A DNA stretch of 64,000 nt from Antechinus flavipes. Its lineage: Eukaryota. Positions 10,540-47,489 of this stretch are shown piece by piece. The position numbers and the translations under genes are program-made. The notes below the pieces were generated by a model. It worked only from the letters and a program-made list of their open reading frames with translations. It was not told the origin of the DNA and searched no databases. The stretch spans positions 185,504,001 through 185,568,000 of the forward strand of contig NC_067401.1 of assembly GCF_016432865.1 (NCBI RefSeq). Reading direction: 5' to 3'. The number at the start of each line of letters is the position of its first letter. Positions within the stretch are counted from its first letter, which is position 1.

Positions 10540-10823
<284 letters not shown>

Positions 10824-11783: not shown

Positions 11784-13099
11784 TCACTTCAACCTCCCAG
11801 CCTTGGTTCTGTGTAGAGAGTGCCAGGATGAGGAGGGACCCATGCGGGGTTTGGTAGGAGAGCAGGAAATGGCCTCACCTCGGCGCCCAAGTCCTTCCTG
11901 AATTTGTCGCTTCAGCTCCTGGCTATCATACACTTGATAGTTAGTAAAACCCCCTGGGTTCCTACTAAGCGGGATGAAGGCAGGTACTCGGCCTGGATCG
12001 GGGGCTGGAGTTCTGGCTGTCACACAGGCTGAGACATAGGACAGGGGTTGAGAGACCTCAGGTATCAGATTCTCATTTGGGGCAGAGCACTGGTTTTGTG
12101 TTTCATGGATGGGGAGTCTGGTGAAGGAAGGGGATGAGCCTAGTGTGATCCGGGGAGGCAATGGCTCTCTATGCTCTCCATCCCATCGTTTTATCTCTGA
12201 CCTCTCCCGGCTGCTAAAGGGCAAATGTCCTGCTGAGACATGGGTCCGATTCAGGGGGTTGTGTGCTGGGATGAGGGGCACTGTGGCACGCCGCACTGAC
12301 TGTCTCGGCACAACATTCTCAGCATAGCTTTGGAGCTCAGGGCTTCGAGGTACAGACTGGGGAGTCTTGGAGACACTGGTCCCCCTACCTCCATCGCGGG
12401 CCCTTTGCCTCAACTCCCAACCATCATAAAAAATCTGGCCACTTTGAGGAAGGGGTTTGTAAGTGCCAGGCATCCAAGATGGATTGGGAGGGAACCTGTG
12501 TCTGAATTGTGGTGAAGTGGGATTCGGTCCTGGTTCCGTGTTCTCCTTTAGGTTTTGAGGCCAGCTATTTGGAGGTGACTGATAATAAGTCTTTAGCCTC
12601 AACTCAGACTTTGCTTCCACCCTTCTGGGAGCCTTCTGGTCTTGAGGAGAGAGATTGGGTCCTCTTGGACAGTAACTGCTCCAGTATCCCCTGTAATGCC
12701 TGATATTTCCAGGATGAGAAGTTGTCTGCTGGTAGTTGGACTGTTGGTTCCAGGCCTCTTTATTGTCATCTAAGTCTGTGTCCCAGGTTTCTTGGTGACA
12801 GAAGGAATTGGGTGAGTTTGCAGGTGAGGGAGGAGGGGGTGGGGGCAAGGATGTTCGAGGGTGGTGGTGATATTGAAGATGGCGTTGGCGGCCACGATTT
12901 CGGCGACTGCGGCGACATGCCTGTTGGCTTCCCCAATAACTGCCATGGCAACTTCCTGAGTGTTGATGACGGCAGCGATGTCGCTTGGATGCAGGGTGGG
13001 TCACATTTAGAGCCACGGGGTCCAAGGTGCAGTGGATGCACAGAGTTGGGACCCCTGGTGGCTTCTTAATGGAAGGCTGGGGCTTCATGGGAATCTTAC
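11784..13099 (-). CDS. SPEM2: SPEM2 (C17orf74) exon 3 (1316 nt)
   Basis: Acceptor cccaatag|GT at 13100/13099. Reads CIHCTLDPV...PRRVEAKSELRL...PPNPSW...FIPLSRNPGGFTNYQVYDSQELKRQ...SLHRT, matching recalled SPEM2. Total CDS 1512 nt = 503 aa. Confidence 0.93.
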
Positions 13100-13332
13100 C
13101 TATTGGGAGTAGGGCAGTGAATTTGGGGAGAGGGATTGGATAGCTAAATACACAAGTCCCTTGTGGGAAATAATTGTGGTCATTGTGTGGGATGTTGGGG
13201 GCCAAAGGGCCAGATTCTCAAGTCCCTTTGAGAATGCTTTCAGAAAGCAGGCAGGTGACAAGGACTGGGAATGTCAGAGGATATAATGTCAGAGGAAGGA
13301 AATCAGAGTCTCTTCCCAGACCCCACACTCAC

Positions 13333-13390
13333 CTTTAGGTTGAAAGAAATCAAATGTTCGGTGTAGGGACCTCATGAGACTGCGCCAGAT
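13333..13390 (-). CDS. SPEM2: SPEM2 exon 2 (58 nt)
   Basis: ccctcag|ATC TGG...AAA G|GTGAGT; IWRSLMRSLHRTFDFFQPK. Confidence 0.9.
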
Positions 13391-13615
13391 CTGAGGGATA
13401 GTGGTGGGGGTGGGGGATCAAAGAAGATAATGGGTGTAAAAGCGTATTTTGCTAAGGCTATTATTGTTTAATAAAGACCCAGGCCCCTGTTCCCTCCCTG
13501 TCTCCTCTCCTCCCTCTCCCAATCATCAAGCTCCCACAGCTATTCTATCCCACTCTCCCAGTATCCACCCTTGTTTAGAAGCCCAGGTAGCATCTGACCA
13601 GGGCCCATCCCTGAC

Positions 13616-13753
13616 CAGAATCATCACATTGATTCCAAGGTTGAGCAGGATGATGAGGCTTAGGAGTAGAAGGATCAAGTCTACAGGATCAAGATTTCTT
13701 GTCGGCCTATGGCCAGAGTGCATCTGTGGCCCATGCTGGGCCTTCTCGGCCAT
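13616..13753 (-). CDS. SPEM2: SPEM2 exon 1 (138 nt), TM helix
   Basis: Strong Kozak ccaccATGG at 13753; MAEKAQHG...DLILLLLSLIILLNLGINVMIL; donor CTG|GTCAGG. Confidence 0.88.
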
Positions 13754-13878
13754 GGTGGGGGGTCCCGGGGTCACCTTGCCCCACCCGGGGCCCTGCCCAC
13801 AGCTCATACATGCCAAGAGCTAGGAGGCTAGTATTCCTGTGTGAAGGCAGATGTGGTTCCTGAAGGAGGTAGGGTTGG

Positions 13879-13912
13879 GTCATAATAGGGATAGGCAGTG
13901 GGGGTCACAATG
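13879..13912 (-). promoter_or_regulatory. Paired GTCA(C/T)AAT motifs upstream of SPEM2
   Basis: GTCATAAT at 13879-13886 and GTCACAATG at 13904-13912 (plus-strand reading). Confidence 0.55.
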
Positions 13913-13943
13913 AAGAGTAAGCTGCTGAGGGCTCTGATCCTTT

Positions 13944-14305
13944 TGAAATGGACAAATCCCTCCTTTCCCCTTTGGGCCAGAAGAAGAAAGTTTGCTTAGT
14001 TAGATTGGGGATCTCTTTTGTATTTCAAAAGACCGGCTCAACAATGCCCTTAAGGTTATCTGTTCCAGGTGGGTGGTGCTCGGGTGGTGCTCAAGATTGA
14101 TCTAATATCTGCTCGAACCCTGTTGTAAAATGCTAATCACAGATTCCAATGTAACATAGCCGAACAGAAAAAAACGTTTATAAAAGCTGTCCTTAGTGCT
14201 GTGAAGGTACGGAATTTTGACCATTCCGTCCTGAGCTCCGTACCAAATAAATCCTAAATCTTCCTCATTGCGGCTGTCTTGAATTTTATTGCCTGGTCTA
14301 TTTCA
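13944..14305 (+). mobile_element. Gammaretrovirus-like (ERV1) 5' LTR, 362 bp
   Basis: Termini TGAAATGGAC...GTCTATTTCA (9/10 inverted repeat), TATAAAA 14179-14185, AATAAA 14246-14251, PBS immediately downstream. Confidence 0.85.
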
Positions 14306-14307
14306 TT

Positions 14308-14325
14308 TGGAGGTCCTACCGAGAT
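14308..14325 (+). promoter_or_regulatory. Retroviral primer-binding site, tRNA-Gln type
   Basis: TGGAGGTCCTACCGAGAT, one mismatch from the Gln PBS TGGAGGTCCCACCGAGAT used by endogenous MLV-like viruses; 2 nt after the LTR CA. Confidence 0.88.
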
Positions 14326-16055
14326 AAGCCTTTGGCTCAGTCTGATGGCCAGTCCCTCTCCCTGGAGGGCAAAGGGGATTACGGATCCTAGGGGGTGGCC
14401 ACCGAGAGATCTTTCTCGGCCCCTGGTGTCCAGTAATCTCTCTTCTGCGAACCAGGAGAGTGAGACCCAAATTTTGAATTCGGTCCAAAATTGGCATAAA
14501 GCATTCTGATTCTGAGGGGCCCCTGCAGCTGCATCTGCAGTTGCCTGTCTGTTTGAGTACTCCGGATTCTGTGTGGGTGGTGGCTCAGCTGGACGCAGTG
14601 TTTACAGCCCTCCCACTGACTCTTCGTGGGACGCCACCGTGAGAGTCCTGACCTGGTTCTGGAAGACTAGTCTGTATGTTCTGTGTGTGATTTGACTGGT
14701 GTTCTGTGTGTTCTGTATGATTTGTCTGTCTAAAAGCTTTGTTAGTTTCAGCATTTAGAAGAGTAAGTCTGTCTGAGTACCTTTTGGGGTACCATCTGGT
14801 TCTGGTTCTGGTCATGGTTATATGTTAACTGTGTAGTCTGTGTGATGTGTATTCTATGTTCTGTGTGATTTGTTTGTTATGTTGTTGGTTGGAAAAATTT
14901 TAAGAACAACGTTGCAACTGTGCTTAGTGAATTGGAGCTCCACGTGTGTCTGTGTTAAAAGTTAGCAAGCTTGTAAAAGATAAGAATTCAGCCTCTGTGT
15001 TGCAGACTTAGAAAATATCCAGAAGTTTGCAAAATCTTTCTCTCTCCCTCTCTGTCTCTGGCTGACTGCAGCAGCCTGTGGGAAAGGGGGGAGAAAGGAA
15101 GAAATAAAAAGGAAATTAAAAAAAAATAGATTGAAAGGGATCNNNNNNNNNNNNNNNNNNNNNNNNNNNNNNNNNNNNNNNNNNNNNNNNNNNNNNNNNN
15201 NNNNNNNNNNNNNNNNNNNNNNNNNNNNNNNNNNNNNNNNNNNNNNNNNNNNNNNNNNNNNNNNNNNNNNNNNNNNNNNNNNNNNNNNNNNNNNNNNNNN
15301 NNNNNNNNTTAAAGGAAAGAAGTTTGAATGGAATATCTAGGCATTCTCTGTGAAGGCAGAGAAAAGCACTAAATGGGTTTGGAAGTTCACAGAAACCCCT
15401 TTTGGATTCTGAAAGGGGAAAAGGGAATTAAACTTCTCTCTCTGGGGGTGGAGGTCTTGGAAACAGCTCCTAGTCTGTTTGCTGATTTAAGAGCTTTGTT
15501 AAGTTTTAAGAACAATGATTAAGGAAAATTTGCTTGTGATTTTAAATTTTTTTTAAGGAAAAGCCTACTAGAGTAAAGGGCAATAAAAAGCTCTGAAGAT
15601 AAGATGCTAATAGCTGTTAAAAGAAATGTGGTAGAAAAGAAAAAAAAACTTTTTAAAGACAGCTGTATTAGTTTGATTCAGTTTGTTACCTTCTGGAATA
15701 TATTGAGTTATTTGTTAACATAAGTTATACTTTAAATCCAGCTCTGCTGGACATGTATGGGTTTTTATGGAGGTTTGGGTTATTCACTATAGTGTGAATC
15801 TTACAGGTTTTTGAAGAAATGCAGATGATTCGGGAAGGACTGATTTGTAGGGGCAATTAGAGGTTTGCATGGTTTAAGGAAGGTGAAAGACTTTTGGGAG
15901 TAGGTAAAGAGGTGGGGGAGGGAGCCACCCAACCCTCACTGTCTTCTACTACTATACTAAAGGAGCATCTGAGTAGGAAAGTTCTTTAAGGAGATTGTTT
16001 AAGTATGTAGCTAGAGGGAAAGAGAAAGTTGGAAAGGAGGGATTTGTCCATTTCA
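14326..16055 (+). mobile_element. ERV leader/non-coding internal region (spans an assembly gap), ending in an inverted copy of the U3 terminus
   Basis: CpG-retaining leader after the PBS with tctgt-rich repeats; no gag ORF seen; 16031-16055 is the exact reverse complement of 13944-13968. Confidence 0.6.
15143..15308. other. Assembly gap (166 N)
   Basis: Run of N. Confidence 1.
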
Positions 16056-17341
16056 CTTTCACTTGTTTATTTATTTGTCTTATGGTATCTCCTGTAGGTG
16101 CCTTGATAAATCTTTCCATCTCTTCCCATTAATCTTGAGCATCATTATCCTTCTCCTCAGGGAAGTAGCACTACCATCTTCCCAGGTACCAAAATTAGAA
16201 TCACTTAAAAGATTTCTCCTTTTCTTCTTGCATCTAACATCTGTATATTTGTTTTTCTTATTTTGCTGCTATATTGTTCATTTGACTGTGTTTTGTGTCA
16301 TTTTCATGCTATAGCATTGTGTTTGTTAATAATTGTCCATATATGCTAATGCCCAGAGATAAGTTATACTTCATATATGGGCCTATTGATAAGTTATTGC
16401 TACAGTTAGCTTTTTTTTTGTTATTTTGCCATGCTTATTGATTTTGAATGATTGATAGGCCTATGTTATATAGTCTGTTGGTAGTGAGGCATGTTGTCAC
16501 TTTAATATCCTCCTAGATGATGGTCTGTATAACTGTGTCTATTGCATTTACTGTTAATGTAGTTTTAGTTTCAATGATACTGAAGGATGGTTACCTGGGA
16601 TACCAAGAAAATTATTCTTATTGTTTTAAAATACTCATGTTGGTGTTTATACTATATTTTTATTTACAGGTTTTGGACCTGCTCCAGTTGATCCTTGCAA
16701 GGAATTGTAGAGTTTTGGTTCAGAGGAGGAATGTAAGCCCTGTCCCAAAGCCCATTGATATAGAACTCTTCTCATTAATGGCAATGAATATTCACACCCT
16801 ACAAGAGATGGAAGTGTGGAATTAGAATGGAGGAGATTTAGCCTTCTCTAGTGGTCTTTGGAACTCTTCCAGCTCTTACTCATGTTGGGCATTTCTGGCA
16901 TCCAGCTTCAAGAAGATGTAAGATGCCAATCTTATTTCATTTTGTGGAAGGAAAAGATTTTGAGAAGAAATAGGAGAGACTGGAAGTTCCTATTATGTCC
17001 TTGTCCCCAACTTGCCACATTAGAAATCAGAGAGCTTTCCCTTGGGTGAGATCCAGGACACTTTCTCTTGGTTGAACTTAATTACCTTGCTCCCAATGGA
17101 AGAACTTCACTCTGTATTGCCTGGTATTTATTCTCCTATGTATACTTTTTTCTGATTTCTGTTTTGCTACCAATTAATAAATAGGTGTCTTTAATATTCA
17201 TTAGGTACACATCTTTGTTGGTAGCTTCCAGCCCCAACTTCTGACTTCTCTCCTAGTAGAAATTAAAATCTCCCTTGAAGAAAGGTGGGAGAAAAAGCCT
17301 TCTTTTGTTGTTGTTATTTTGTTTAAATTTTAGCACTTTAT

Positions 17342-18030
17342 ATTTTTTTTCTTTTTAAAGCTTTTTATTTTCAAAACATATGTACAGATAATCTTTCAAC
17401 ATTGACCTATGCAATCCTTGCATAGCCTTATGTTTCAGATTTCCCCATCTTCCCCTCCCACCCTTTCCCCTAGATGGCAAGCAATCCAATATATGTTATA
17501 CATGTTAAAATATATGTTAAATCCAATATGTATAAACATATTTATACAATTCTCTTGCTGCACAAGAAAAAATCAGATCAAAAAGGAAAATAAAGGAGTA
17601 AGAAAACAAAATGCAAGAGAACATCAACAAAAAGAGTGAGAATGTTATGTTGTGATCTACATTTAGTTCCCACAGTCCTCTCTAGGTGTACATGGCTCTC
17701 TTCATTAAAAAATCATTGGAACTGACATCAGTCATCTCATTGTTGGAAACAATCACGTTCATCAGAATTGATCGTTGTATAATGGCGATTGCCCTTGTAT
17801 AATGATATCCTGGTTCTGCTCATTTCACTTGAAATCATGTTCATGTAAGTCCAGGTCTCTCTAAAATCATCCTCCTGATCGTTTCTTCAATAGTATTCCA
17901 TAGTCACATTGACTGTGTAAGTCAATTCTCCAACTGATGAGCATCCACTCCGTTTCCAGTTTTTTGCCACTATGAAAAGTGCTGCCACAAACATTTTTGC
18001 CCACGAGGGTCCCTTTCTTTTCTTTAAGAT
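17342..18030 (-). mobile_element. LINE-1 3' end (ORF2 C-terminus + 3' UTR)
   Basis: Poly-T followed by marsupial L1 3' UTR; minus strand carries a frameshifted KGKGP-CAK-FVAALF-VAKNWK-like ORF2 tail. Confidence 0.85.
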
Positions 18031-18226
18031 CAAAGAGCCTTTTTTTGAACGACATAGCAATACATCACCCTGTGCTGCAGGTAGGGAAAAAAGCCCTCAT
18101 TACACAGGCCTTACCACATGGAGGGGCCCTCTTTCTACACATGCTATATCTGTTTCCATAATACAATTCTGGAAAAGATCTCCCTTCATCCCTGACAATA
18201 ATGGCTGCCAAACTGGATTGCAAAAG

Positions 18227-19203
18227 TGTTGTAATATCAAGAGTTGTTGGAAATACACGGGAGCCACCTGACAGTGGCTGCTGGCGATCCAACCCAGACC
18301 TGCAGAATGGATCTCCTCTTGTGAAAGGATGATAGATACAAGTGTACTGAGAGGCTGTTGTGTTGTTTGAACTCTCTCCTCTTCCCTCTGCCTCCAATTT
18401 ATCTCAATCCCAGTCTGCAACACATGTGTTGGTAAAGGGTGCCCTGCAGCTCCTTCAGATGTTATGATCCACAGCTGTGGAGGCTTTAGGAGAATTGACC
18501 TATCCCTATGCCCGTTTTTTGTTTTTTGCTGTTATTCCTCCCTCCTCTTCCCCTCCCCCACCCCAGCATGGTCCGCACACTGAGAAATACAAGCAGCCCT
18601 ATCACCTCTGGATGGTTGTAGCAGGTATTGATCTTATCATGGAGACAAATTTTCAAAGGGAGAAGAGGATTGTAGTCAGAACAGGCAATTAAGTTTCTCA
18701 TCAGTCTTCTGGCTCTGCCCTTTGGTATACTGGCCCATTTGATTACCCTGACTAAAAAAGTCTTACCAGGACTCTTTTTTCCTTTCCTTCCCCGAGGGTT
18801 ACCGAAGGAACTCTGGAAGGATCCTTCTCATGAACAGCTCTGGTTCTTGTAATTCTTATACTTCTTTTGCCTCACGTTCAGGTGCCATATGTTGTAATAC
18901 CGGGAGCTGTTGGAAATACACAGGAGCCATCTGACAAGTGACTGCTGTAGATCCAACCCAGAGCTGCAGAATGGATCTCTTATGAGAGGAGGATACAAGG
19001 AGACTGAGAGGCAGTTGCTGTTCTCTGACCTCTCTGACTGAGAGGCTGTTACATTGTCTGACCTCTCTCCTCTTCCCTCTGCCTCCAGTTTATTTCATTC
19101 CCAGTCCATAATACCTGTGTCAGCAGAAGCTGCTCTGCAGCTCCTTCAGATGTTATGATTCACAGTTGTGGAGGCTCTCAGAGAATTGACCTGTCCCTTA
19201 ACA
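18227..19203 (-). mobile_element. Miniature betaretrovirus-like (ERV2) provirus: 5' LTR 19203-18890, internal ~380 bp, 3' LTR ~18510-18227
   Basis: Two homologous LTRs ending ...ATTACAACA, Lys-type PBS at 18887-18870, A-rich PPT near 18530-18510, perfect 6-bp TSD CAAAAG at 18221-18226 and 19204-19209. Confidence 0.9.
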
Positions 19204-20127
19204 CAAAAGCCTAGTCTTCTCACTCTCACCTCTTAAAATTCCTAGTGTAGCCCCCTCCTCCTTTAAAGCCATTTCTCTAATCTGCATTTACAATCTTTGG
19301 TTTGGAGGCCACTTACTGAGTTCTGGGGGCACCCAGAAGTTTTGGGTTTCTAGTACTATTGCTCATGACTCCCAACTGGTGTGATTCCCATTTATCCAGC
19401 TAAAGTTAATTAGCTCATTTTAAAAAGATATTTACAAGGAAGAGAGTAAGTAAATGTTATAGAACATTTCCCCTAAAACCTGAGGCACAATCTCCCACAA
19501 GTATACACAGTGACCATGGGGAAAATGCAGTCAAACTTAAGAGTACAATGGTAATGATGCACATTCATAGAGAATACATGTGACATGTCTTCCAATCCCT
19601 GGACCTGGAAGTTCTTTTCTATATGGACTCCTCATGAAGTGTCCCTTAGGAGTAGCTTTCTACTTGCTACATACCTGCCTCCCAGGACTTTCTAGAGTTC
19701 AGGGTCAATATTTCTTTCTGCCATGAGGAGTAGCATTCTTTGATGTTTAGAGCTGTTCATCTTCAATAGTCTTGTTGGTTTTGCTGCAGCTACTTTCACT
19801 ACTGTTAGTCAGTACCATTCTGGTAGTCACTGCCAATATTGCCATTTAGATTCAATGGAACACACCTCCCATCCTTTCAATAAAAAAAAAAGGTGTTGCC
19901 TGGCTATGCATACCTTGAAATTGCTGCTTGGTCATCTCAAAGAAGAAATACTAAAGAGATAGGGACAGACCTGTATTCATGATCATCATTGTCTGGGGGC
20001 ATTCAGAGCAAACACCTTTCTCTTCCCTGATTCTAGGCTAGAAAGCAGCTCAATGTGGTTTTACACTTCTCACCAATTCAAAGGAAAAAGACTATTGAAA
20101 GGTATGTCATCCATGTATACTTATTTT

Positions 20128-20303
20128 GTATTTAATTTATACTTTAGCATATTTAATATGTATTGGTCAACCTGCCACCTGGGGGAGGATGTGGGAGGAA
20201 AAAGGGGAAAAATTGGAACAAAAGATTTGGCAATTGTCAATGCCGTAAAATTACCCATGCATATAACTTGTAAATAAAAAGCTACTAAAAATAATTTAAA
20301 AAA
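20128..20303 (+). mobile_element. LINE-1 3' terminal fragment
   Basis: ...aaaattacccatgcatataacttgtaaataaaaagct... followed by A-rich tail. Confidence 0.8.
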
Positions 20304-21644
20304 GAAAGGTATGTCATCCCTTTTATAAACTCACTCTATTTTAATTCCGAAATCCCTGAAGCATCAGTTTTTCCAGCTTCATAGCTAATTGTTATTTTAA
20401 AATATTCATGTAATTTTGGTTTTAATTCTGTATTTAAACACTAGGATCATTTGTGAAATGGTAGGTCTCTTACCTATAGTTTGCTTTTTCTTTTTAAATA
20501 TGCAATAAATTTAACATAACTTTCAGAGTATTTCTACTTTTTTGTGATTCCTCTTGACTTTTCTCTTATGGGAAGAGAGGAACCCAGTTTCTTTCCACTC
20601 TTCTCCTTAAAAACAAATATATATAGTCAAGCAAACCAAATACCCGTGGCCATGTCTAAAAATGTATATTTCCTTTTGCATCTTTAAGTCCCTCACTTTT
20701 CCCATAGAATCCTCTAAATGTTCATGTCCTGAGGCAAAATCCTGGACTCTAAACCCTGGACTCTTCATGTGTCACGCCTTTTTAATGGATGTATATCAAC
20801 TTAGAAGGAGATAGAATGCCCCTAGGGATTTATCCACAGTTCTATATTGTTTAACATGTGCCTCAAAGACCTAAAAGAAGGTGGGGTGAGTATGCTTTGG
20901 CTCACTGAGGGAAGGCTCCCTCAGAGTTCTAGGATATCACTTCTTTAAGGTCATCAGCGCAAACGCCACCTAATGTGTTCTATCACTGTTAGCTAATTGC
21001 TAAAGTCCCAGTTCCATTTAACTCATAGGCATCATAGCTTTTACAAATGGATATTTATTTTGAAGACCTAGCAAAAACAGAAGTCTAAATATTTCCCCTG
21101 CAATATAAGGACAATACTCTCTCCTATATCACTTCAGTCTCTAGGGAGAGGGAGTTCATTGATCCTCATCAAGTTTATTTCAAAAATCTCTTGTTAGATG
21201 AGTCATTGGTTATATATGCTGGGGGCATATGAGCTAGGCAGGCTACCTTTACCCGGGGCCATCAATGAAAGAGTAACAATTCAGGCAGAGATCCAATTAG
21301 AAAAGTAGCTTAAGGCCTAAGTATTGTTCTGAAGTCAATTAAAGAGACTGCCATTCACTCAAGGTATAAGCCAACCTGAATCTGGCCTTCCTGCCTACTG
21401 GTCATGGTCTAGATTTCTTCATTGATTGACCAACAAAAGGTCCCAGGCACAACTCACTTGGTCATTGTTTTGGGCCCTGAGTGTCTCAGAGTGAATATAA
21501 ATATAAAAGTAATACAATTGTTATTTTGATGAAAAAAAAAAAAGCCCAGAGGGTCTTCCCCTCTCAAAATGATTCCCTTTTTTACTTTTGAGTGGGGGAA
21601 AGGAGAACTAGGTGAAAAAGTTCATTCTTCACCTCTTTTCTTTC

Positions 21645-21860
21645 ATACTTAGCCTTAATCACTGAATGGGTGGTTGCCTCAATCAAACAGACCTGTTAAA
21701 AACCTTAGCTTAAAAAGGCCAAGGTTCCCCCACTGCATCCAGGACCTTCTCAAGTCATCTTGATCTATATCTGTCACTGGAACCAAGTGCTTCCAGAGGA
21801 GAAAGCAAGGCAGGTGACTTTGCATTAGTCCTCCTTTTCTCCCTCAAATCCATTTAACTT
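21645..21860. mobile_element. Marsupial RTE-derived interspersed repeat fragment (WALLSI-like); related copy near 37985-38215
   Basis: Shared cactgcatcc...ccatc...agtcat...tga(c/t)...ctgtcactg...ggagaaag...gactttg(c/t)a...ctc...aaat pattern in both places; family name is tentative. Confidence 0.45.
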
Positions 21861-22494
21861 GATGTCTACACCTTTCTGATGTAGTGGTACTCTCTACCTA
21901 TGCTCCAATGTTAGTTCAATGTATCTCCATGTCCCAGAAACAGTATTTCCACATGTGGGAAATTGTATCAGCAAGACAAGCTCTGATGCCCTTTGCTTGG
22001 AATTTCTATATTAGATATTGCTTGCTCTTAAAAAAGATAATTGATCATCTTTTTAAATGCTCCCACTTAATACTTTCAGAAAATCATGAAGCCATATGAA
22101 CTGATGAAAAGTGAAATGAGAAGAGCAGGAGACTACACAGTAACAGCAAAAATGTACAATGATCAGCTGTGAATGACTTAGCTATTCTCAGCAATACAAT
22201 GATACAAGACAATTCTGAAAGGCTCATAATGAAAAATGTCATCCATCTTTATCAATTTTTTTTTTTGGTGAGGCAAAGGGATTGAGTGACTTGCCCCACA
22301 GGGTCACACAACTAGGAAATAAGTGTCTGAGGCTGGATTTGAATTCAGGTCTTCCTCTATTTAGCTACTCCAGTGCTATCCATCAGAGAAAGGACTGATG
22401 GAATCTGAATACAGATGGAGGCTTATTTTATTTTATTTTTTGCTTTATTATTCTTGGGGGTTTTTTGATCTTTGTTTTCTTTTGCATCATGATT

Positions 22495-22720
22495 AATTTA
22501 GAAATATGTTATTCAGGATTGCACATACATAATCTATATTAAATTGTTTACCTTCATATACTATAACATATTTAACATGTATAAGACTGCCTGGCAGCTA
22601 GGGGAGGGGGTGGAGGGAAGGGAAAAATGGGAACATAAGTGAGTGCAAGGGATAATGTTGTAAAAAAATTACCCATGCTCATACATACTATCAATAAAAA
22701 GTTAGAATAAAAAATAAATA
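22495..22720 (+). mobile_element. LINE-1 3' fragments
   Basis: ggggagggggtggagggaag...aaaaaattacccatgc...tcaataaaaag A-rich tail. Confidence 0.75.
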
Positions 22721-22965
22721 AAATTGTTTGCCTTCTCGAAGAATGGGGAGGTAAAAGAAAATATGGAACTAAAAATTTAAAAGAGGAATATTTTTAAATT
22801 CTTTACACTTGAGAAAAAATAAAAATTAATAGTAAAAAAATAAAATGGTCTTGTTTCTCTGTGCTTTTTTCCCTATCTTCTCTATTTCTCTATATGCTTA
22901 AATTTTTGAAATATTTATTTTTTTCTTTTGGTATCATTGTTGAGATTCAGTGCATGGCAGGAAGT

Positions 22966-23560
22966 TGTGGGAACCCCCTTTTGGGCAGCGCAGTTCCTTC
23001 ATAAATGAATTTAACCCAAAAAGTTAAACTGGCAAAAAAGGTTTATTATTGGCATTGGGAAGTCAGACTTTGCTAGAAAGACTGAATTCCCTGGTGGCAA
23101 GGTTCTGACAGAGGGATATAAAGTTTCTAGTGGAAAAATCCTATCCTAGCTGAGAAATCCCGGCAGGAAGGTAAAGAGGGCATAGTCCTGTTAGGGAAAT
23201 AGGTGAGAAAGATAAAGATGGAGTAACACTGAAAAAGAATGTCATTTCAGCGGGCAAAGGGTTGCTGCCATGCTAAGGGGAGAAGGAGGTTCCTTGGAAT
23301 GGCATATTAGGTCTTCTGCAAGGAGATGGATTAAAGGAAACTTGTTTTATGAGCAGCTCTTGGGTGAGGGCTGGGAGCAGTTTGAGCTGGAATCAGAATA
23401 GAAAATCTTGGAATTGAATGAGTGTCTCTGGGCTAGCTCAGGCTAAGTAGGAATAGTCCTGGACTCAACCTGTCCCACCCAGATAACAGAATGAAACCAT
23501 TTTATCTTAATTTCCTGGGGTAGGTCACTCAGGGGAGAGCTTAGTGTTCCCCCCAAAGTC
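22966..23560 (-). mobile_element. Solo LTR (ERV1-like family shared with copy at ~39949-41060)
   Basis: Minus strand contains ttcccaatgccaataataaac poly(A) block and ends ggggttcccaCA; same block on plus strand at ~40770-40870. Confidence 0.7.
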
Positions 23561-24069
23561 AGAGAGAGAAAAAAAAGAGTTTTGGAGCTCCCTCATTACT
23601 ATCCTCCATTGTCTCCCAATTAAAAACAGGTGAAAAACCATGTATGATGAGTAATTTAGTAAAACATGCATATAGAAAACATCCAAAAATATATGTTTTC
23701 CTTCATACCTAGAATCCATTACACCTCTGTCAAGATGTTGATCACAGTTTTTTAAGTCTTTGAAAATTACTTTTCTTAGCCCGGAGAAACTTAAAAAAAC
23801 TGTTGCTGAGTGAATTGAACAGAATCAGAAAAACACTGTACAGAGTAACAGCAGGTTTATGTGATGATCTACCATGAAAGTCTTAGCTCTTCTTAGATTT
23901 ACAGTGATCCAAGCCAATTCCAATAGAATTGGGATAGAAAATGCCATTGACATCTGGAGAGAGAACCATAGAGACTGAAAGAATGAAGCATATTTTTTCA
24001 CCTTTTTTTCTCTGCTTTTTTTTTCCTTTATGGTTTTTTCCCTTTTGTTCTGATTTCCTTTCACAACTT

Positions 24070-24613
24070 GACTAAAATGGAAATATGTTTAAAATGATGT
24101 ATATATATAACCTATATTAGATTGCTTTCTATCTTGGAGAGCTGTGGGGAGATTGGGGAGGGAGGGAAGGATAAAAAAAAAAATTTGGAACTCAAAATCT
24201 CACAAAAGTGAATGTTGAAAACTATTGCTACATGCAACCAGAAAATAAAATACTATTGAACTAAATATTTTTCTTTGTAATGCCATTATGTAAATTATTA
24301 TTCTCACTTTACTCTTTAATTCATACTTCCCAGAAGGTTCATCATTTATTAGAGTACAATAATATTCTACTACATTCAAAAATATAACTTGTCCATATAT
24401 TTATTTCACATATTTATTCCTCAATTAATGGATGCCCCTTTAATTTCTAGTTATTTTCTTCTTTTTTCTTTTCTTTTTTATTTCTTAAGGATCAGAAAGT
24501 TTGTTTGGCTTGTCACTGCCATTAACAGTATTTTCTTTCTTAAATCCAACTCTCCCTATCCCTACCTGTTTCCCTGTTAAGTCTGATATATTTATATACC
24601 AAACTCTTTTTAG

Positions 24614-24671
<58 letters not shown>

Positions 24672-25650
24672 AACATACTATTGTCCCAGTTCAGGTAAGA
24701 ATGGGCTATTTGATGTTCTTCCAATCACTTCCTTCTCAGTGTTTATAAAATTCTCACCCACCTCAATTAAGAGAATGGTAAATTTCATCCCTTCCTTCTC
24801 TCTACACCACTGCATCCATTTTTTACTCTCCACTTTATTTTCTCAAAACCCTCACAGTAGACCTAACCCACTTTCAGATCCTGTTTATCTTAACTTCCTT
24901 GAAGACATTAAGGATGTGAAGGAATATATTTTTTTCTTCTATTAGAATATGAGCCTTTCTTCATAATACAGTTCCTTCCAAATGCTGAAATAAATTTACC
25001 TTCCTAAGTTTCTCTTGATTTTTGTGTTAGCATTTCAAAATTCTTTCTCTGCTCTGGTTTTTTCCTCTAGTCAGTGGCTTTTTGAAATATATTCCAAGAT
25101 TTCTTCTTTATAGCCAAAGCTTCTAAGCCTTATGTGAATCCTGACTTAGCTAACTCCTTGGTACTTCAGCTTTTTCTTTTTGCCTATTTTGTAGCATTTC
25201 TTTTTGACACAAAAGCTTTGGAAGATATTCCTAGAACTTTGTTGGGGGGGGGGGACTTTTTAAAGGAGTTGATCAGAACATTCTTTCTATTTTAGCTTTC
25301 CTCTCTGATTCTAAAAGATCTGATTAATTTTTGTTTATGATTTTTTTTTGGTAAAGACTTTTAAAAAAATATTATGTTTTTTTAAGGGAGTCTTTTGATT
25401 TAAATATTTTCTCCCAGAAGTATTTTTAAGTCAGTTGCTTCTGATGGTAGCTATCTTAAATTTTCTTTTTTTTTTTTATCTTTGATTTTTTTTGTTTTAA
25501 TTTTTTTGGCCATATTATGCATCATTTATATTTGTTCTGTTTTACTTTTTTAAGGGTAAGGTTTGCCATTTTTTTCAAAGTTATTTATTCTCCTAATTCT
25601 TCTAGAAATTTTATTTCACTTTTTAAATCTCTTGCTTCATGTTGTCTAAG
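24070..25650. mobile_element. Cluster of older LINE-1 fragments in both orientations
   Basis: L1 3' UTR on plus (24070-24262) and T-rich antisense L1 body fragments (24330-25650). Confidence 0.6.
24616..24669. repeat. (GT)n microsatellite
   Basis: ~27 perfect units. Confidence 0.98.
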
Positions 25651-27789
25651 TAGGGAAAACCCATTATTTTCCATTTGATTCTCTGCTTGTAGTTATCATA
25701 GACTTTACTCTTCCTACATAAAGATAAATTATTGTTAAGTGCTTACTCTGTACCAGGTATTATGCTAAATGTTGGAAATACAAATTTAAAAAAATTCTAT
25801 TTTCAAGAAGATTATATTCTAATCAAAGACAAAACATTAAAAAATTGAAAAGAGTGTGTGAGAGTTATTAATTTGTTATTTTCCAAGTTAATATGCTATC
25901 AACAGGGATCTATTTCTTCTATCTGAATTTGACACCACTGCTTTAAAGCAGGGATTCTTTATTCTTTCTTTGCCTAAAAAATGCCAGACACATAGTTAAT
26001 AAATACTTGTTGAATAATTGATTAATTTGCATCTTCAGATGTGTCTTGTATTCTTTTGATATTATAAAATCTCCAAAGTGGATCTTCCCTGATCCAACCC
26101 TGCAATAAAGGATTTCATATTTTCTTAGTGTCCATTATTCTTGCTATTCTCTGCAGTGAATAGAAAGGCTATATAAATATTAAATGTTGAGACCTCGCTC
26201 ACATACAAAACCATTCTACTAGAACTAATACTAGTAGAATTATTCCAAATAAAAGACAAAAATACCAAATGGATTTCCTGGCTCTACACATAAATAGATT
26301 CTACTTCTCTCTTGTTATGTAGAACCCCATTAGGAAACTCCAGATATACAATATGTAACTCAAATATAGACAGACCATATCCTTACACGAGTGCTAGAAA
26401 TGTCTCCAGTAATCTTCATAAAACAACTGGAATAGAATTGTTACCTTGGGATCCAGTGTCAAGTACATCAAGCTGTCAATGCTTTCAATCCATTGGTACA
26501 CAGAGGCCTATCAGTCCAGTTGGAAAGGAACAAGGAAAGATTTATGGGCAGAGATTTTTTAGGAGTCTGGTGTCCAAATCCTCTGTTCTGATATATTTTG
26601 GTAACCATCTAGCAAACAAATCTGATTTTGAATAAATCTAACATGCATGAGAATCTTGTCTATAATTGTAGCAATATTACTATTCTATTTGAGAACATAT
26701 CTTTTATTTGGTTTCTAAATTAGGTGGCCCCTGCCTCTAAAACTAGATCTCTCTCTTGTCCTTTTATAAGCTGTCACTTTGAACAACAATTTGATTCCCA
26801 GATTCCTTGGCTCCTTCCATGAGATCTGTTTGATCTGAGTTAACAGCTGTTTTGGTCTAAGTAGCTTATTGTAGAGGGGGTTGCTTTGGGCCACTGATTA
26901 TCTATCTCATTCACCTTTGAGTGTTCTCTCAAGTCATTCTTTCATATTTCCTTTCCCATTCAACCTGATCAAGTTGTAGGACCTGGGAGTTCCTGAAGCT
27001 AATGGTGGAATAGTTGTAGTTTGAAATTTAAAATATCTAATTCCTAATCCCTTGGGTCAATTTTTTGTAATTTATATACTCCATGTTTGGTCAGTGGTCT
27101 CTGGAACAACTTATCTGATCTTAGTACAAAGTTAGAGAGATTCTCTTTGTCTTGTGAATAGATTCACAATGATACATGCTCTTTATACTATTAGAAGTAC
27201 CAAATTGTTTAATTCAACAATTGTGAACATTCTAATATTGTCATTTGCAATATTGTATTGCCGGGTAGCTATGTAGTCTTAAAGACAGATCCCCTCAAGT
27301 TCTCTAATCACTTGATCCTCTTAGCCATCCCTGCTTCATATCTAGTGGTAATTTGAGTCAGGTACCAAATGTATCCTTCCCCTTGAAAATAATCATTTTT
27401 TTGTAGTGGACACACTTGGATTGTACTGCTTGATTGTTAGCATGACTCAAAGGCTGAGACTAAACCTCAGCTGGTATCAGACATTTGAATGAGAGAGTAT
27501 TACATTCCCTAGCAGGATCTTTCATAATCCACAATCCATCCTGCATTCTCTTGGACTGACATCAGAAATGATCAGAAAAGGAAGAATTAGTAATTAATTT
27601 CAAAGTGCCCCATTTTCCAGTTATTTCTTTTTTTAAAATTTAAAATATCTTATTGCTAAAAATGTTAATCATTATCTGAACCTTCAGCAAGATGTAATCT
27701 TTATGCTGGTAGAGGGTCTTTCCATGATATTGATGGCTGCTGACTAATTAGGATGATGGTTATTGGAGGCTGAGGTGCATGGCAATTTC

Positions 27790-28575
27790 TTTATTTTTAA
27801 AAAATAACAGCTTTTTATTTTCAAAATACATGCATAGATAGTTTTCAACATTCACCCTTGCAAAACCTTGTGTTCCAAAATTTTCTCCCTTCCTTTCCTC
27901 TACCCGCTACCCTAGATAGCAAGTAATTCTAATATATGTTAAACATATGCAATTTTTCTATACACATTTCTACATTTGTCATGCTGCAGAAGAAAAATCA
28001 GCTCAAAAAGGAAAAAAGGAAAGAAGCAAACAAAAAAAAACTATGAAAATACTATGTTGTGATCCATATTCAGTCCCCACAGCCCTCTTTCTAGATACAG
28101 ATGGCTCTCTTCATTGTAAGTCCTATTGGAATTAGCCTGAATCACCTCACTGTTGAAAAGAGGCCTATCACAGTTGATCATCGCATAATCTTCTTGTTGC
28201 TATGTACAATATTCTTTTGGTTCTGCTCATTTCACTTAGTATTAGTACATATAAGTCTCTCCAGGCCTTTCTGAAATCATCCTGCTGATAAATTTGTAAT
28301 AAAACAATAATATTCTATAACATTCATTTACCATAATTTTTTCAGCCATTCTCTAGATGATGGGTATCCATTCAGTTTCCAATTCCTTTACACTACAGAA
28401 AGGGCTGCTATAAACTTTTTTGCACATGTGGGTCCTTTTCCCTTTTTTTATGATTTCTTTGGGATACAAGCCCAATAGAGACACTGATGGATGGAAAGAT
28501 ATTCCCAGTTTGATAGCCCTTTGGGTATAGTTCCATAATCCTCTCCAGAATGGTTGGACCAGTTCATAACTCCTA
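27790..28575 (-). mobile_element. LINE-1 3' end, same subfamily type as 17342-18030
   Basis: agctttttattttcaaaa...cccctagatagcaag...cacatgtgggtccttttccc. Confidence 0.85.
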
Positions 28576-28581
28576 GGTGTC

Positions 28582-28715
28582 TTTTTTTTTCTCCCTGAGG
28601 CAATTGGGGCTAAATGATTTGCCCAAGGTCACACAGCTAGGAAGTGTGTTAAGTATCTGAGACCAGAATATGAATTTCAGGACTGGTGCTCTACCTACTA
28701 CACCAGCTAGCTGCC
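28582..28715 (-). mobile_element. WSINE1-type SINE
   Basis: T-tail + gaggcaattgggg...cccaaggtcacacagctaggaagtg...ctagctgcc. Confidence 0.8.
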
Positions 28716-29415
28716 TCCATCCCAGGTATTTCTTTAGCTATATGGGGAAGCACCCAAGTTTCAAAAAGGCATATAGGTTTATATTTGTTCTCTTTTCTGA
28801 ATACCTTCCCCAGAATCCTAAATCACATCAGAGTCAATAGCAAAGTGCAAAATTCTTTTAGTGTGGTACCCTTTTAACACTTCATAAGCATACCCCAAAC
28901 AAGTAGTTCTTGGTGAGGGCTCATACAGAATCCCTGAATTCAGAGCCATCTAATTTAGCCCATAAACAAAAGGAATCTTCTCTATAACATACCTGACCAG
29001 GAGTTATCCAGGAGTTATCTACTCAACGACCTTAAATGAGGGAGAATTCACCACCTCCCATTCTACTTTTTAACAACACTAATTGCTAGGAAAAAAATTT
29101 TTTTCTGACATCAAGCTTATGTTTAGTTCATTAAAATTACCATCTATTTTTCACGGTTTTATCTTTTTTTTTTAATGTGTTTATTCTTGGTGGAGAAATC
29201 ATTTTGTTGAAGAAAAAAGCAACAAAAGGATTAGGTCTGGTCCTATGCTTTAATTGGTGTAGGGAATACCTGGATGAGGAAACTCACTGACCTAGTGGAG
29301 GTCAGCACCAGCTCTCCATAGCAAATCCCTAAAGAATTAAAAGGATCATTGGAGAACCCAGGTCTTCTTGACTCTCTTATATAGGTTTAAAAAGAAGGGC
29401 AAACACAAAGAAACC

Positions 29416-29547
29416 NNNNNNNNNNNNNNNNNNNNNNNNNNNNNNNNNNNNNNNNNNNNNNNNNNNNNNNNNNNNNNNNNNNNNNNNNNNNNNNNNNNNN
29501 NNNNNNNNNNNNNNNNNNNNNNNNNNNNNNNNNNNNNNNNNNNNNNN
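29416..29547. other. Assembly gap (132 N)
   Basis: Run of N. Confidence 1.
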
Positions 29548-33660: not shown

Positions 33661-35244
33661 ACTGAAAGATGTTGTTAATGCACTTGCATTCAATATGCCA
33701 GCAAATTTGGAAAACACAACAGTGATCACTATATTGAAAAAGATCCATTTATTGAATAATTATGCTTATTTCATATGCCAGCAAGGTTATGCTTAAGATT
33801 CTGTAAACCAGATCTCAGCAACAGAGAATTACTAGAAAAGCAGGCCGTTTTTTGAAGAGGTAGAGAATAAGAGACCAAATTGCCTACATTTGCTGACAAG
33901 AGAGTTCCAGAAAAACATCTATTTTTGATTCATTGACTAGAGGAAAGCCTGACTCTGTGGATCCCAACAAAATATGGCTAATCTTCAAAGAGATGGGAGC
34001 ACCTGTATATGGGCCTGAGAAACCAGTATATGGGCCAAAAAATAAGAACCAAACATGGAACAACTGATTAAAATTTGAAAAAGAATATGATAAAGCTGTC
34101 TATTGTCCCCTTATTTATTTAACTTATCACATCATGTGAAATTCCAGGCTGGATGAATCAAAAGCTGGAATTAAGGTTGCTAGGAGAAATATCAATAATC
34201 TCAGATATGCAGAAGATATTGTGAAAGTGAAGAGAATTAAGAAGTCTCTTAATGGGGAAGAAAAAGGAGAGTTTACAAAGCTGGCTTGAAGCTTAACATC
34301 AAAAAAACAAAAACAAAATGCTAAGATCTTGGCAACTGGTCCCATCACTTCCCTGGCAAATAGAAGGAGAAGAAATGAAAACAGTGTCAGATTTTATGTT
34401 CTTGGTCTCAAAGATCACTGCAGATGGTGACTGTGGTCATGAAATTAAAAGATGTTTGCTCCTTAGAAGGAAAACTGACAAATTTGAATAGCATACTACA
34501 AAGCAGAGATATCACTTTGCTAACTAAAGCTCATAGAGTCAAAACTGTTTTTTTCTGTAGGAACAGCTCAGAATCAACATTTTTGAATTGTGGTGCAGGA
34601 GAAGACTTTTGAGAATCCCTTGAATATTAAAGAGATCAAATCAGTTAATACCAAAAGAAGTTAATTCAGGATATTCACTAGAAATTCAAACACTAAAGCA
34701 TAGCTACATAATGAGGAGATAGGACCTATTGGGAAAGACCCTGATGGTGGAAAAGATTGAAGGAAAGGGGGGTGCAGAGAATGATATGGAGAGAAAGTAT
34801 CATGCAAATAACTGATATGAACTTCTAGGGATAGTAGAGGATAAGAAGGGCCTAGCATGCTTGGATCCAGAGTCAAATATGACTGAAGGACTGAACACAA
34901 ATAATAATCAGGAAGTGGTGTCAATAGGATGAACCTTCAGTCCCTTGAAGCAATCAAATTCTGGGGATAGTTTCAATATATTTTTTTTTTAATGTATACA
35001 TTTTAATTTATATTTGCTAAATGTTTCCATCTGAATCTGGTTGTTGTTTTGTTTTGGGTTTCAATACTTTTAAAAGAAAAATTTGTTAAACTTGCACAAG
35101 GAAAGATCTTAGAATATTGTTCTTACCATACTTTAGTCCTTGTTGGTAAGGTCCTTAAGGTACTCCAGAGTATTGAGGTTAAAATGCTCCAACAAACCAC
35201 ATGCAAATTCACAATATTCTACTGAACTTTGATTCAATGCATAA

Positions 35245-36197: not shown

Positions 36198-36834
36198 TGT
36201 GATAAAATCTAGACAAGTTGCAGTCTGAGTGAGAAATGATGAGATAGCTGCCATGGGGTGCCCTTCCTAAATGGCAGATCTAGAAAGAACTCTCTGGTAT
36301 TCACCCTTTACCTTCTCCAATCAGATGATCCCCAGTATTACTGGGTATTGAAAACACCTAAGTTTCAGAGTTGATATTATCCTGCAGAATGATGAGTTTC
36401 TGGAGACCACAATGAATTCCAGGAGTGCAATCTATGAGAAAGAACTTTAAGGCTTGCAGAGCACTTTATATAATATTTGAGATTCAGAACACTTCTAGTG
36501 GTGAAGAAGGGTCCCCAAAACTCAAACTCTTTGAAGGAGAAAATTTCCTTCAACTCTTCTGTGAGGGACCCCGCCAGAGGGAAACAAGACAAACAGTTTC
36601 ATTCTGTTATCTAGGTGGGGTCAGTTCAGTCCTGAGCAAAAGAATTCCAATCCTATTCAATTAAAGTTCATATCCTCTACTATCCCTAGAAGTTCATATC
36701 AGTTATTTGCATGATACTTTCTCTCCATCTCATTTAAATTCCTGACCACCAGAAACCTTAATCTCATTTTAGTTCCCTAAATCTAGACCTTATCACCCTC
36801 TACAAAAGGGAACCCCAAAACCTAAACCTCATCA
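36198..36834 (+). mobile_element. LTR fragment (same 3' tandem block as 40915-41060)
   Basis: Starts tgtgataaaat, ends ...aatctcattttagttccctaaatctagacc...aaacctcatCA; boundaries approximate. Confidence 0.55.
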
Positions 36835-47461: not shown

Positions 47462-47489
47462 GTCACAATGGGATGGAGACATCACAATA
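47462..47489 (-). promoter_or_regulatory. Paired (G/A)TCACAAT motifs upstream of SPEM1
   Basis: GTCACAATG at 47462-47470 and ATCACAATA at 47481-47489 (plus-strand reading). Confidence 0.55.

Follow-up and report, generated by a model that had tools for sequence, protein, structure and literature searches.

An endogenous retrovirus-derived element with inverted U3 termini and a 4-bp flanking repeat upstream of SPEM2 in Antechinus flavipes

The DNA analyzed here, a 64,000-nucleotide stretch of the Antechinus flavipes genome (contig NC_067401.1, positions 185,504,001 to 185,568,000; hereafter the window, with all coordinates counted from its first nucleotide), contains a short element derived from an endogenous retrovirus (ERV) that lies next to the 5' end of SPEM2, a member of a cluster of three SPEM paralogs. 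The element (13944-16055) starts as a provirus normally does, with a complete long terminal repeat (LTR), a primer binding site (PBS) and a non-coding leader, and ends, beyond an assembly gap, with an inverted copy of the first 25 nucleotides of its own U3 region (Table 1). The start of U3, which is the left attachment (att) site recognized by integrase, is thus present at both termini in opposite orientations, and the same tetranucleotide is found outside each copy.

Table 1. Features of the element and of the adjacent chromosomal DNA (window coordinates)
Feature	Position	Strand	Comment
SPEM2	11787-13807	-	exons 13807 or 13753-13613, 13390-13328, 13121-11787; head-to-head with the LTR, 136-190 bp apart
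9-mer CATTGTGAC, probable promoter element (putative function)	13904-13912	-	intact, 31 bp from the insertion
CTTT, left copy of the flanking 4-bp direct repeat	13940-13943	+	sequence comparison
U3 nucleotides 1-25, left att site and left arm	13944-13968	+	inner 12 nucleotides all pyrimidines
Complete 5' LTR (U3-R-U5)	13944-14305	+	362 bp, TG..CA, own ends a 9/10 inverted repeat, CpG observed/expected 0.56
TATAAA box in U3	14179-14184	+	U3/R border placed ~25-30 nucleotides downstream by inference
AATAAA polyadenylation signal in R	14246-14251	+	
TT spacer and PBS	14306-14325	+	PBS 14308-14325, 18 nucleotides; 17/18 to the tRNA-Gln3 PBS
Non-coding 5' leader with short internal repeats	14326-15142	+	purine tract 15081-15092
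Assembly gap	15143-15308	.	166 N, true size uncertain
Non-coding, C-poor, G-skewed segment	15309-16030	+	purine tract 16013-16028 at its end
Right end, inverted copy of U3 nucleotides 1-25	16031-16055	-	stops at CA, no TT
CTTT, right copy of the flanking 4-bp direct repeat	16056-16059	+	sequence comparison

The two arms are reverse complements at all 25 positions, and the similarity ends abruptly, with only 22 matches over the adjoining 100 nucleotides inward. Even with up to three mismatches allowed, the arm pattern is found at just these 2 sites in the window (0.00 expected from 100 shuffles), and simulation of the region under an order-3 Markov model (300 runs) never yielded an exact 25-bp inverted repeat, the longest being 20 bp. 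The CTTT repeat is direct and non-palindromic; when lengths from 1 to 20 were tried, only 4 fitted as a duplication, and the chance of matching 4-bp flanks is ~0.4-1.0%. The window contains 76 exact inverted repeats of at least 18 bp, 7 of which are left after a complexity filter, and the pair 13944/16031 is the only one of the 7 that is flanked by a direct repeat. The inverted repeat with its duplication, both of which had been reported in the initial annotation together with the abrupt loss of similarity, is therefore real in the assembly and not a product of chance. The right att end together with its flank (16050-16062) includes TTTCAC twice in tandem, probably by chance and possibly as a microhomology; an alternative right boundary at 16050, with a 3-bp repeat, was rejected because it falls inside the arm.

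The left arm opens an LTR with the TATA box, the polyadenylation signal and the adjoining glutamine-type PBS that the initial annotation had reported. The LTR terminates in ATTTCA, followed by TT and the PBS; the count of matches to the tRNA-Gln3 PBS (Table 1) refers to the sequence printed in PMC1592299, i.e., to a published PBS rather than to a dasyurid tRNA. The ends of the LTR itself form a 9/10 inverted repeat, with exact identity limited to the terminal 6 bp, a point that the initial annotation did not include. The right end of the element has the U3 base at position 7 and continues as U3 through position 25, and therefore is not a worn U5. The TT that follows the genuine U5 end is missing here as well. 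The organization is neither that of a canonical provirus nor that of a solo LTR: there is no second LTR in direct orientation with a polypurine tract (PPT) and the right end is not U5 (with the qualification that the 166-N gap could hide sequence), whereas U5 is followed by TT and the PBS, not by the duplication. No second LTR, as had been noticed before, and no further copy of the family were detected in the 64-kb window. The CpG observed/expected ratio of the LTR is high in comparison with three older repeats of the window (0.05-0.13) and with the region 16056-45000 (0.07), which suggests that the insertion is young. U3 also contains an 11-nucleotide tandem duplication (14069-14092).

The interior of the element appears to be entirely non-coding. 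There is no retroviral open reading frame in the 64-kb window, six-frame translation of the element yielded no coding remnants, and none of the 15 open frames of the element and its junction matched retroviral or transposase families, the only Pfam matches being sub-threshold and unrelated. Five weak matches to RNA families, all far under the gathering scores, were obtained for 13000-17000, and no tRNA genes are present in the window. The segment that follows the gap has no match elsewhere in the window and is presumably comparable to the C-poor non-coding interior of class I ERVs. It probably represents continued internal sequence of the same ERV: the G-skew is +0.30 before the gap and +0.39 after it, a level reached in 3 of 84 control tiles, and turns negative past the right end, and the two segments have 14 9-mers in common on the same strand and 4 on the opposite strand. 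These observations weakly support continuity across the gap. The leader contains several repeats of 10-13 nucleotides (14653-14880). A same-strand similarity, 67% over 76 nucleotides, connects the part of U3 near the TATA box (14126-14197) with 15600-15672; both sequences are A-rich, and although the score of 18 exceeds the highest values for 200 shuffles (17) and for 84 tiles (15), the similarity could be due to chance.

Given that the element lacks coding sequence, its classification rests on the ends, the PBS and the length of the duplication, which together suggest derivation from a class I (gamma-like) ERV. A TG..CA LTR, short inverted att repeats, TATA and AATAAA, all of which are on the list of class I features in PMC3601003, are present, as are a PBS that starts 2 nucleotides past the LTR and a 4-bp target-site duplication. 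Proviruses of the type found in murine leukemia virus (MLV) and xenotropic MLV-related virus (XMRV) share with this element the TG..CA LTR, TATA, AATAAA, the TT spacer, the glutamine PBS, the att ends, the 4-bp duplication and insertion at the 5' end of a gene. Unlike such proviruses, the element has no visible 3' LTR, PPT-LTR junction, gag, pol or env, and its right end is inverted U3. Among dasyurid ERVs, the representative LTRs of MEGrv 1-3 are 451, 486 and 281 nucleotides long (PMC11334065); the comparison was by length only, and because the LTR described here equals none of the three, we do not place it in any MEGrv clade.

A direct, non-palindromic 4-bp repeat beyond two exact CA termini is what concerted integration leaves behind. 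It follows that either both ends held in the intasome were U3 ends or the duplication is older than the rearrangement that created the right terminus. We hypothesize, with moderate confidence, the former scenario, namely that one mistaken jump during reverse transcription produced a short gamma-type DNA, each end of which carried a U3 att site, and that this DNA was then integrated in a concerted step. This explanation corresponds to the defective DNA with two U3 ends that the initial annotation offered as its first possibility, along with the 4-bp duplications of gammaretroviruses, and of the explanations considered, it is the best supported, by the TG..CA ends, the 4-bp repeat, the succession LTR-TT-PBS and the lack of a 3' LTR; it stops short of proof.

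Short plus-strand products of reverse transcriptase tend to pause and dissociate. Under the proposed mechanism, a plus-strand DNA newly started at the PPT, ~13-25 nucleotides in length, would leave its template, and its pyrimidine-rich 3' end would re-anneal to a purine tract in the leader, on either a second genomic RNA or plus-strand DNA. The short DNA would then prime minus-strand synthesis as far as the PBS, after which the normal, PBS-mediated second strand transfer would yield a blunt duplex with the structure U3-R-U5-PBS-leader-inverted U3(1-25). The same product could be reached in the alternative direction if a paused plus strand copied back a second strong-stop DNA. Integrase would trim both U3 ends to CA and insert them jointly, with a 4-bp duplication at the 5' end of SPEM2. 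Plus-strand DNA is known to start at the PPT with the first nucleotide of U3, and reverse transcriptase alternates its orientation in order to extend and then to remove the primer (PMC3185511).

The landing site and the att ends are both compatible with this scheme. The inner part of the arm (U3 nucleotides 14-25) consists of pyrimidines throughout, and the purine tract at 15081 in the leader matches its complement, i.e., the inner 12 nucleotides of the right arm, at 11 of 12 positions, a score that was reached by 10 of 500 shuffles in this post-hoc comparison. Another purine run directly precedes the right arm, but 7% of the internal 20-mers are equally purine-rich. The start of the element, TGAAA, and the end of the LTR with the adjoining PBS, TTTCATT-PBS, match the att sites of MLV, for which a 4-nucleotide duplication, preference for the 5' ends of genes and the use of ~16-20 terminal nucleotides by integrase have been described (PMC12789967). 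Duplications of 4 bp were found at 13 of 15 XMRV integration sites (PMC2857682). Asymmetry of proviral ends is also found in human immunodeficiency virus (HIV), where 26 of 88 proviruses were asymmetric and those with an intact 5' LTR and a deletion to the 3' end have been attributed to reverse-transcription misalignment using both RNA copies (PMC9278108). The similarity to this group, an intact 5' LTR combined with a large deletion to the 3' end, has a limit: the deletions described for the HIV-1 proviruses end in a 3' LTR of normal orientation, whereas here inverted U3 replaces U5.

Several observations weigh against this scenario. The evidence comes from one copy at one locus in a gapped assembly, with a putative microhomology and a junction of the flanks that passes through a presumed empty site, and a templated insert would produce the identical sequence. 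Integration of U3/U3 DNA in vivo was reportedly observed by Masuda et al. in 1998. A T at position 3 of the duplication, as in CTTT, is under-represented at XMRV sites (PMC2857682), and each end of the element departs at one position from the gammaretroviral att consensus (PMC3601003). Across the gap, the local alignment of the two internal segments is not significant (its score was reached by 40 of 200 shuffles), and 2 of 65 control tiles have at least as many common 9-mers (14). Joining the flanks at the presumed empty site would bring GC content from 0.56 to 0.34 when 300 bp on each side are compared, a change that is matched at 0.6% of 1199 positions; with flanks of 130 bp and 1 kb, the respective values are 11% of 1220 and 2.2% of 1115 positions. 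This step is mild evidence against a simple join, and is partly explained by the coding exon included in the left 300 bp. A protein-level search with the frame that spans the right junction gave no candidate for another copy or an empty allele, and the antisense frame over U5, the PBS and the leader gave 6 candidates, none with E ≤0.1; because neither frame is a gene, these blank searches say little.

The strongest competing explanation starts from a normal, U5-ended provirus in which a later, single repair or replication event removed nearly the entire region from the leader up to U5, of which at most the final 6 bp were spared, and inserted ~19 nucleotides of reversed U3, with the att repeat of the LTR itself serving as the microhomology. 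A reverse-transcription error with two switches, or inversion of the 3' LTR and subsequent deletion, would lead to the same outcome. Because U3 and U5 do not differ over the terminal 6 bp of the right end, and the two ends of the LTR are inverted repeats of each other at 9 of 10 positions, the CA terminus and the duplication do not in themselves require an intasome with two U3 ends. Furthermore, host polymerases are able to add viral DNA in direct or reverse orientation (PMC5041404), and among HIV proviruses, asymmetry with loss of 3' sequence is frequent (PMC9278108). Nevertheless, two template switches would be needed instead of one, and one of them would have to occur in the terminal 6 bp of the element, given that base 7 is already of the U3 type; moreover, not a single U5-specific base or other remnant of a 3' LTR is left. 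We consider this origin of the right end unlikely.

The two exact U3 ends and the 4-bp duplication would be explained equally well if two viral DNAs, or a larger inverted product, were engaged in one intasome, and the host subsequently joined or trimmed them, leaving at least 2.1 kb on one side and 25 bp on the other. The 25-bp remnant is close to the 16-20 nucleotides covered by integrase (PMC12789967), and concerted integration of two donors in vitro is mentioned in PMC2857682. On the other hand, such an event calls for two DNAs in one complex and for two truncations, and the similarity to U3 stops sharply at 25 bp, with only a weak, A-rich, same-strand resemblance to the LTR further in, so that we regard this possibility as rather improbable.

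An assembly artifact, either misplacement of the contig 15309-29415 or a chimeric right junction, appears still less probable. The initial annotation had cautioned about misassembly, and the caution is justified to the extent that the gap lies inside the element and that this middle contig, for which no gene anchor was found, is enclosed between two gaps; the failure of the pre- and post-gap segments to align and the GC step between the flanks point in the same direction, and 25 is a commonly used k-mer or overlap size. The unusual junction, however, is located within the contig, 722 bp from the gap, so that misplacement alone does not create it, and the matching CTTT would have to be a coincidence of the magnitude given above. 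The GC content of the middle contig, 0.29-0.46 per kb, is like that of the DNA after the second gap. Finally, genes are arranged in a consistent order, all on the minus strand, on both sides of the element: a carboxylesterase-family gene (50.9-55.2 kb), which we take to be a neuroligin on the basis of synteny, a SPEM1-like gene (47373-45994), the element, SPEM2, a SPEM3-like gene and a Mab-21-domain gene that presumably is TMEM102-like. Thus, the scaffold is orderly overall.

Two further explanations appear very improbable to us. The initial annotation had alternatively viewed the 25-mer as a constitutive internal element that pairs with the start of U3 in genomic RNA, like the cyclization sequences of Ty1 and HIV-1; on this view, the present copy would be truncated right after it. 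A duplex of this kind is predicted to be stable (-30.8 kcal/mol, calculated for DNA), and a natural partial complement of U3 14-25 does exist at 15081. This version is poorly compatible with the position of the right end: the match stops precisely where the att site terminates in CA, and beyond it come the duplication and DNA that has the opposite skew, a different composition and a non-viral appearance, so that truncation at precisely that base and a chance duplication would be needed; in addition, local folding of the arm regions is not above that of shuffled sequences (z 0.67, 0.13, -0.45). In the other case, integrase would have inserted only the left end, and a host polymerase would have copied U3 backwards at the broken right end before joining it to the chromosome. 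Aberrant one-ended integration is a documented pathway, with one normal end and the other consisting of truncated and joined viral DNA, appended in either orientation and sometimes reversed, but the cases described usually include long duplications, deletions or host inversions, in contrast to the canonical 4-bp duplication and exact CA found here (PMC5041404). In our hand count of the HIV table in the supplement of that article, a canonical duplication was present in 0 of the 19 rows in which a whole LTR was lost (15 integrated, 4 circles) and in 1 of the 67 rows overall; in addition, there is no reason for such a copy to stop exactly at CA.

The resemblance to DNA transposons, to which the initial annotation had drawn attention, is confined to shape. 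Perfect terminal inverted repeats (TIRs), TG..CA ends and a 4-bp duplication are common to Ginger elements and the bacterial insertion sequences IS3 and IS481 (PMC2836005). However, the left arm coincides with the beginning of a complete, PBS-associated LTR, the 15 frames matched neither a transposase nor an integrase, and unlike in Ginger1 and Ginger2, the TIRs are 25 bp rather than ~40-270 bp long, the terminus is TGAAA rather than TGTNR, the target is CTTT rather than CCGG, CCGT or RTATAY, and the element is a single copy within the 64-kb window (PMC2836005). The element is not a DNA transposon, and a non-autonomous Ginger-like transposon or a contaminating bacterial insertion sequence has, in our view, a negligible probability; no match was found among 72,556 plasmids and 50,697 phages, nor was the arm matched in a collection of bacterial and archaeal genomes. 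Autointegration was rejected by reasoning because the inverted U3 would then adjoin the U5 end rather than internal sequence.

Returning to the concerted integration of a DNA with two U3 ends, the element is a real, single, dead-end variant provirus: without a 3' R, a PPT and genes, the copy is unable to replicate, and without a second LTR, its reduction to a solo LTR is impossible.

The best matches of the predicted SPEM2 protein are dasyurid proteins of that name, the large exon being 98.5% identical to the Antechinus flavipes model and 93% identical to Sminthopsis. The LTR begins 136 bp upstream of the start codon of those models and 190 bp from the start that is common to other marsupials. 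SPEM2 is essential for spermiogenesis in mice (PMC10904452).

Upstream of SPEM2, the 9-mer CATTGTGAC belongs to a set of 5 occurrences in the window, compared to 0.32 expected, 4 of which are upstream of the three SPEM genes (minus-strand sites 10791-10799, 10815-10823, 13904-13912 and 47462-47470), such that every SPEM paralog has at least one. The motif, which we assume to resemble SOX sites and half-sites of the cAMP response element, may be a spermatid promoter element. In Sox30-null mouse testis, expression of Spem1 is lost (PMC5732304). In the SPEM3-like first exon (10549-10743, minus strand), the ATG at the position expected from the paralogs seems, by eye, to be out of frame with the hydrophobic segment, whereas the ATG at 10743 is in the tblastn frame; a frameshift or an alternative start is possible.

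The SPEM1-like gene is kept apart from SPEM2 by ~30 kb of AT-rich, repeat-rich DNA (16056-45993), in a cluster in which the other spacings are much smaller; the second assembly gap (29416-29547) is inside this region. The region also includes an inverted pair of 68-nucleotide sequences (34780-34847 and 36667-36734), 97% complementary, 1819 nucleotides apart and far more alike than the surrounding repeats, possibly the result of a small inversion or gene conversion. An older, small LTR element on the minus strand (18227-19203), which was used as the control for a normal LTR pair, has two LTR-like repeats that are 76% identical over 312 nucleotides and separated by ~380 bp. Its ends are TG..CA, its duplication is 6 bp long (CAAAAG), and it retains a decayed stretch similar to a PBS, presumably of the lysine type; its appearance is that of a class II ERV with an internal deletion.

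In the literature that we searched, no description of a natural provirus with two U3 ends was found; most subscription journals, including older retrovirology, were outside the coverage. Engineered U3/U3 substrates, namely HIV att-exchange mutants as well as Ty1 and avian mini-donors, are said to be accepted by integrase. In contrast to these laboratory-built constructs, the present locus would be a natural germline case. If real, it would provide natural germline evidence that retroviral integrase can cleanly insert DNA with two U3 ends, and would imply that one error of reverse transcription can make an LTR element TIR-bounded. The case is limited to one copy, neither coding nor mobile, in an assembly with gaps, and the mechanism is a proposal. 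For the host, the outcome is a probably young LTR placed head-to-head with SPEM2, close to its start, that is not reducible to a solo LTR.

With considerable reservation, we suggest that such proviruses could constitute a recurrent, overlooked product of reverse transcription, bounded by TIRs with exact att ends after one plus-strand mis-jump, a generalization that we consider possible although unlikely. Because they have no LTR pair and no right-hand U5, they would not be counted by common assays, and the assay of PMC9278108 is indeed blind to proviruses that lack U5. If the class does exist, LTR-pair finders and U5-primed assays would miss it altogether.

The TIRs of Ginger elements have been proposed to originate, possibly, from LTRs in opposite orientation, by a chain of events that the authors call unclear (PMC2836005). 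The locus described here carries no integrase but suggests a one-step alternative to two opposed LTRs as the source of Ginger1 TIRs. If a mis-jump of the same kind landed downstream of the integrase gene, a promoter and integrase would be placed between TIRs in one step, which is the layout proposed for the transition from an LTR element to a DNA transposon (Ginger1). Should the recurrent class prove to be real, the Antechinus locus would illustrate this step of the transition in a natural germline setting.

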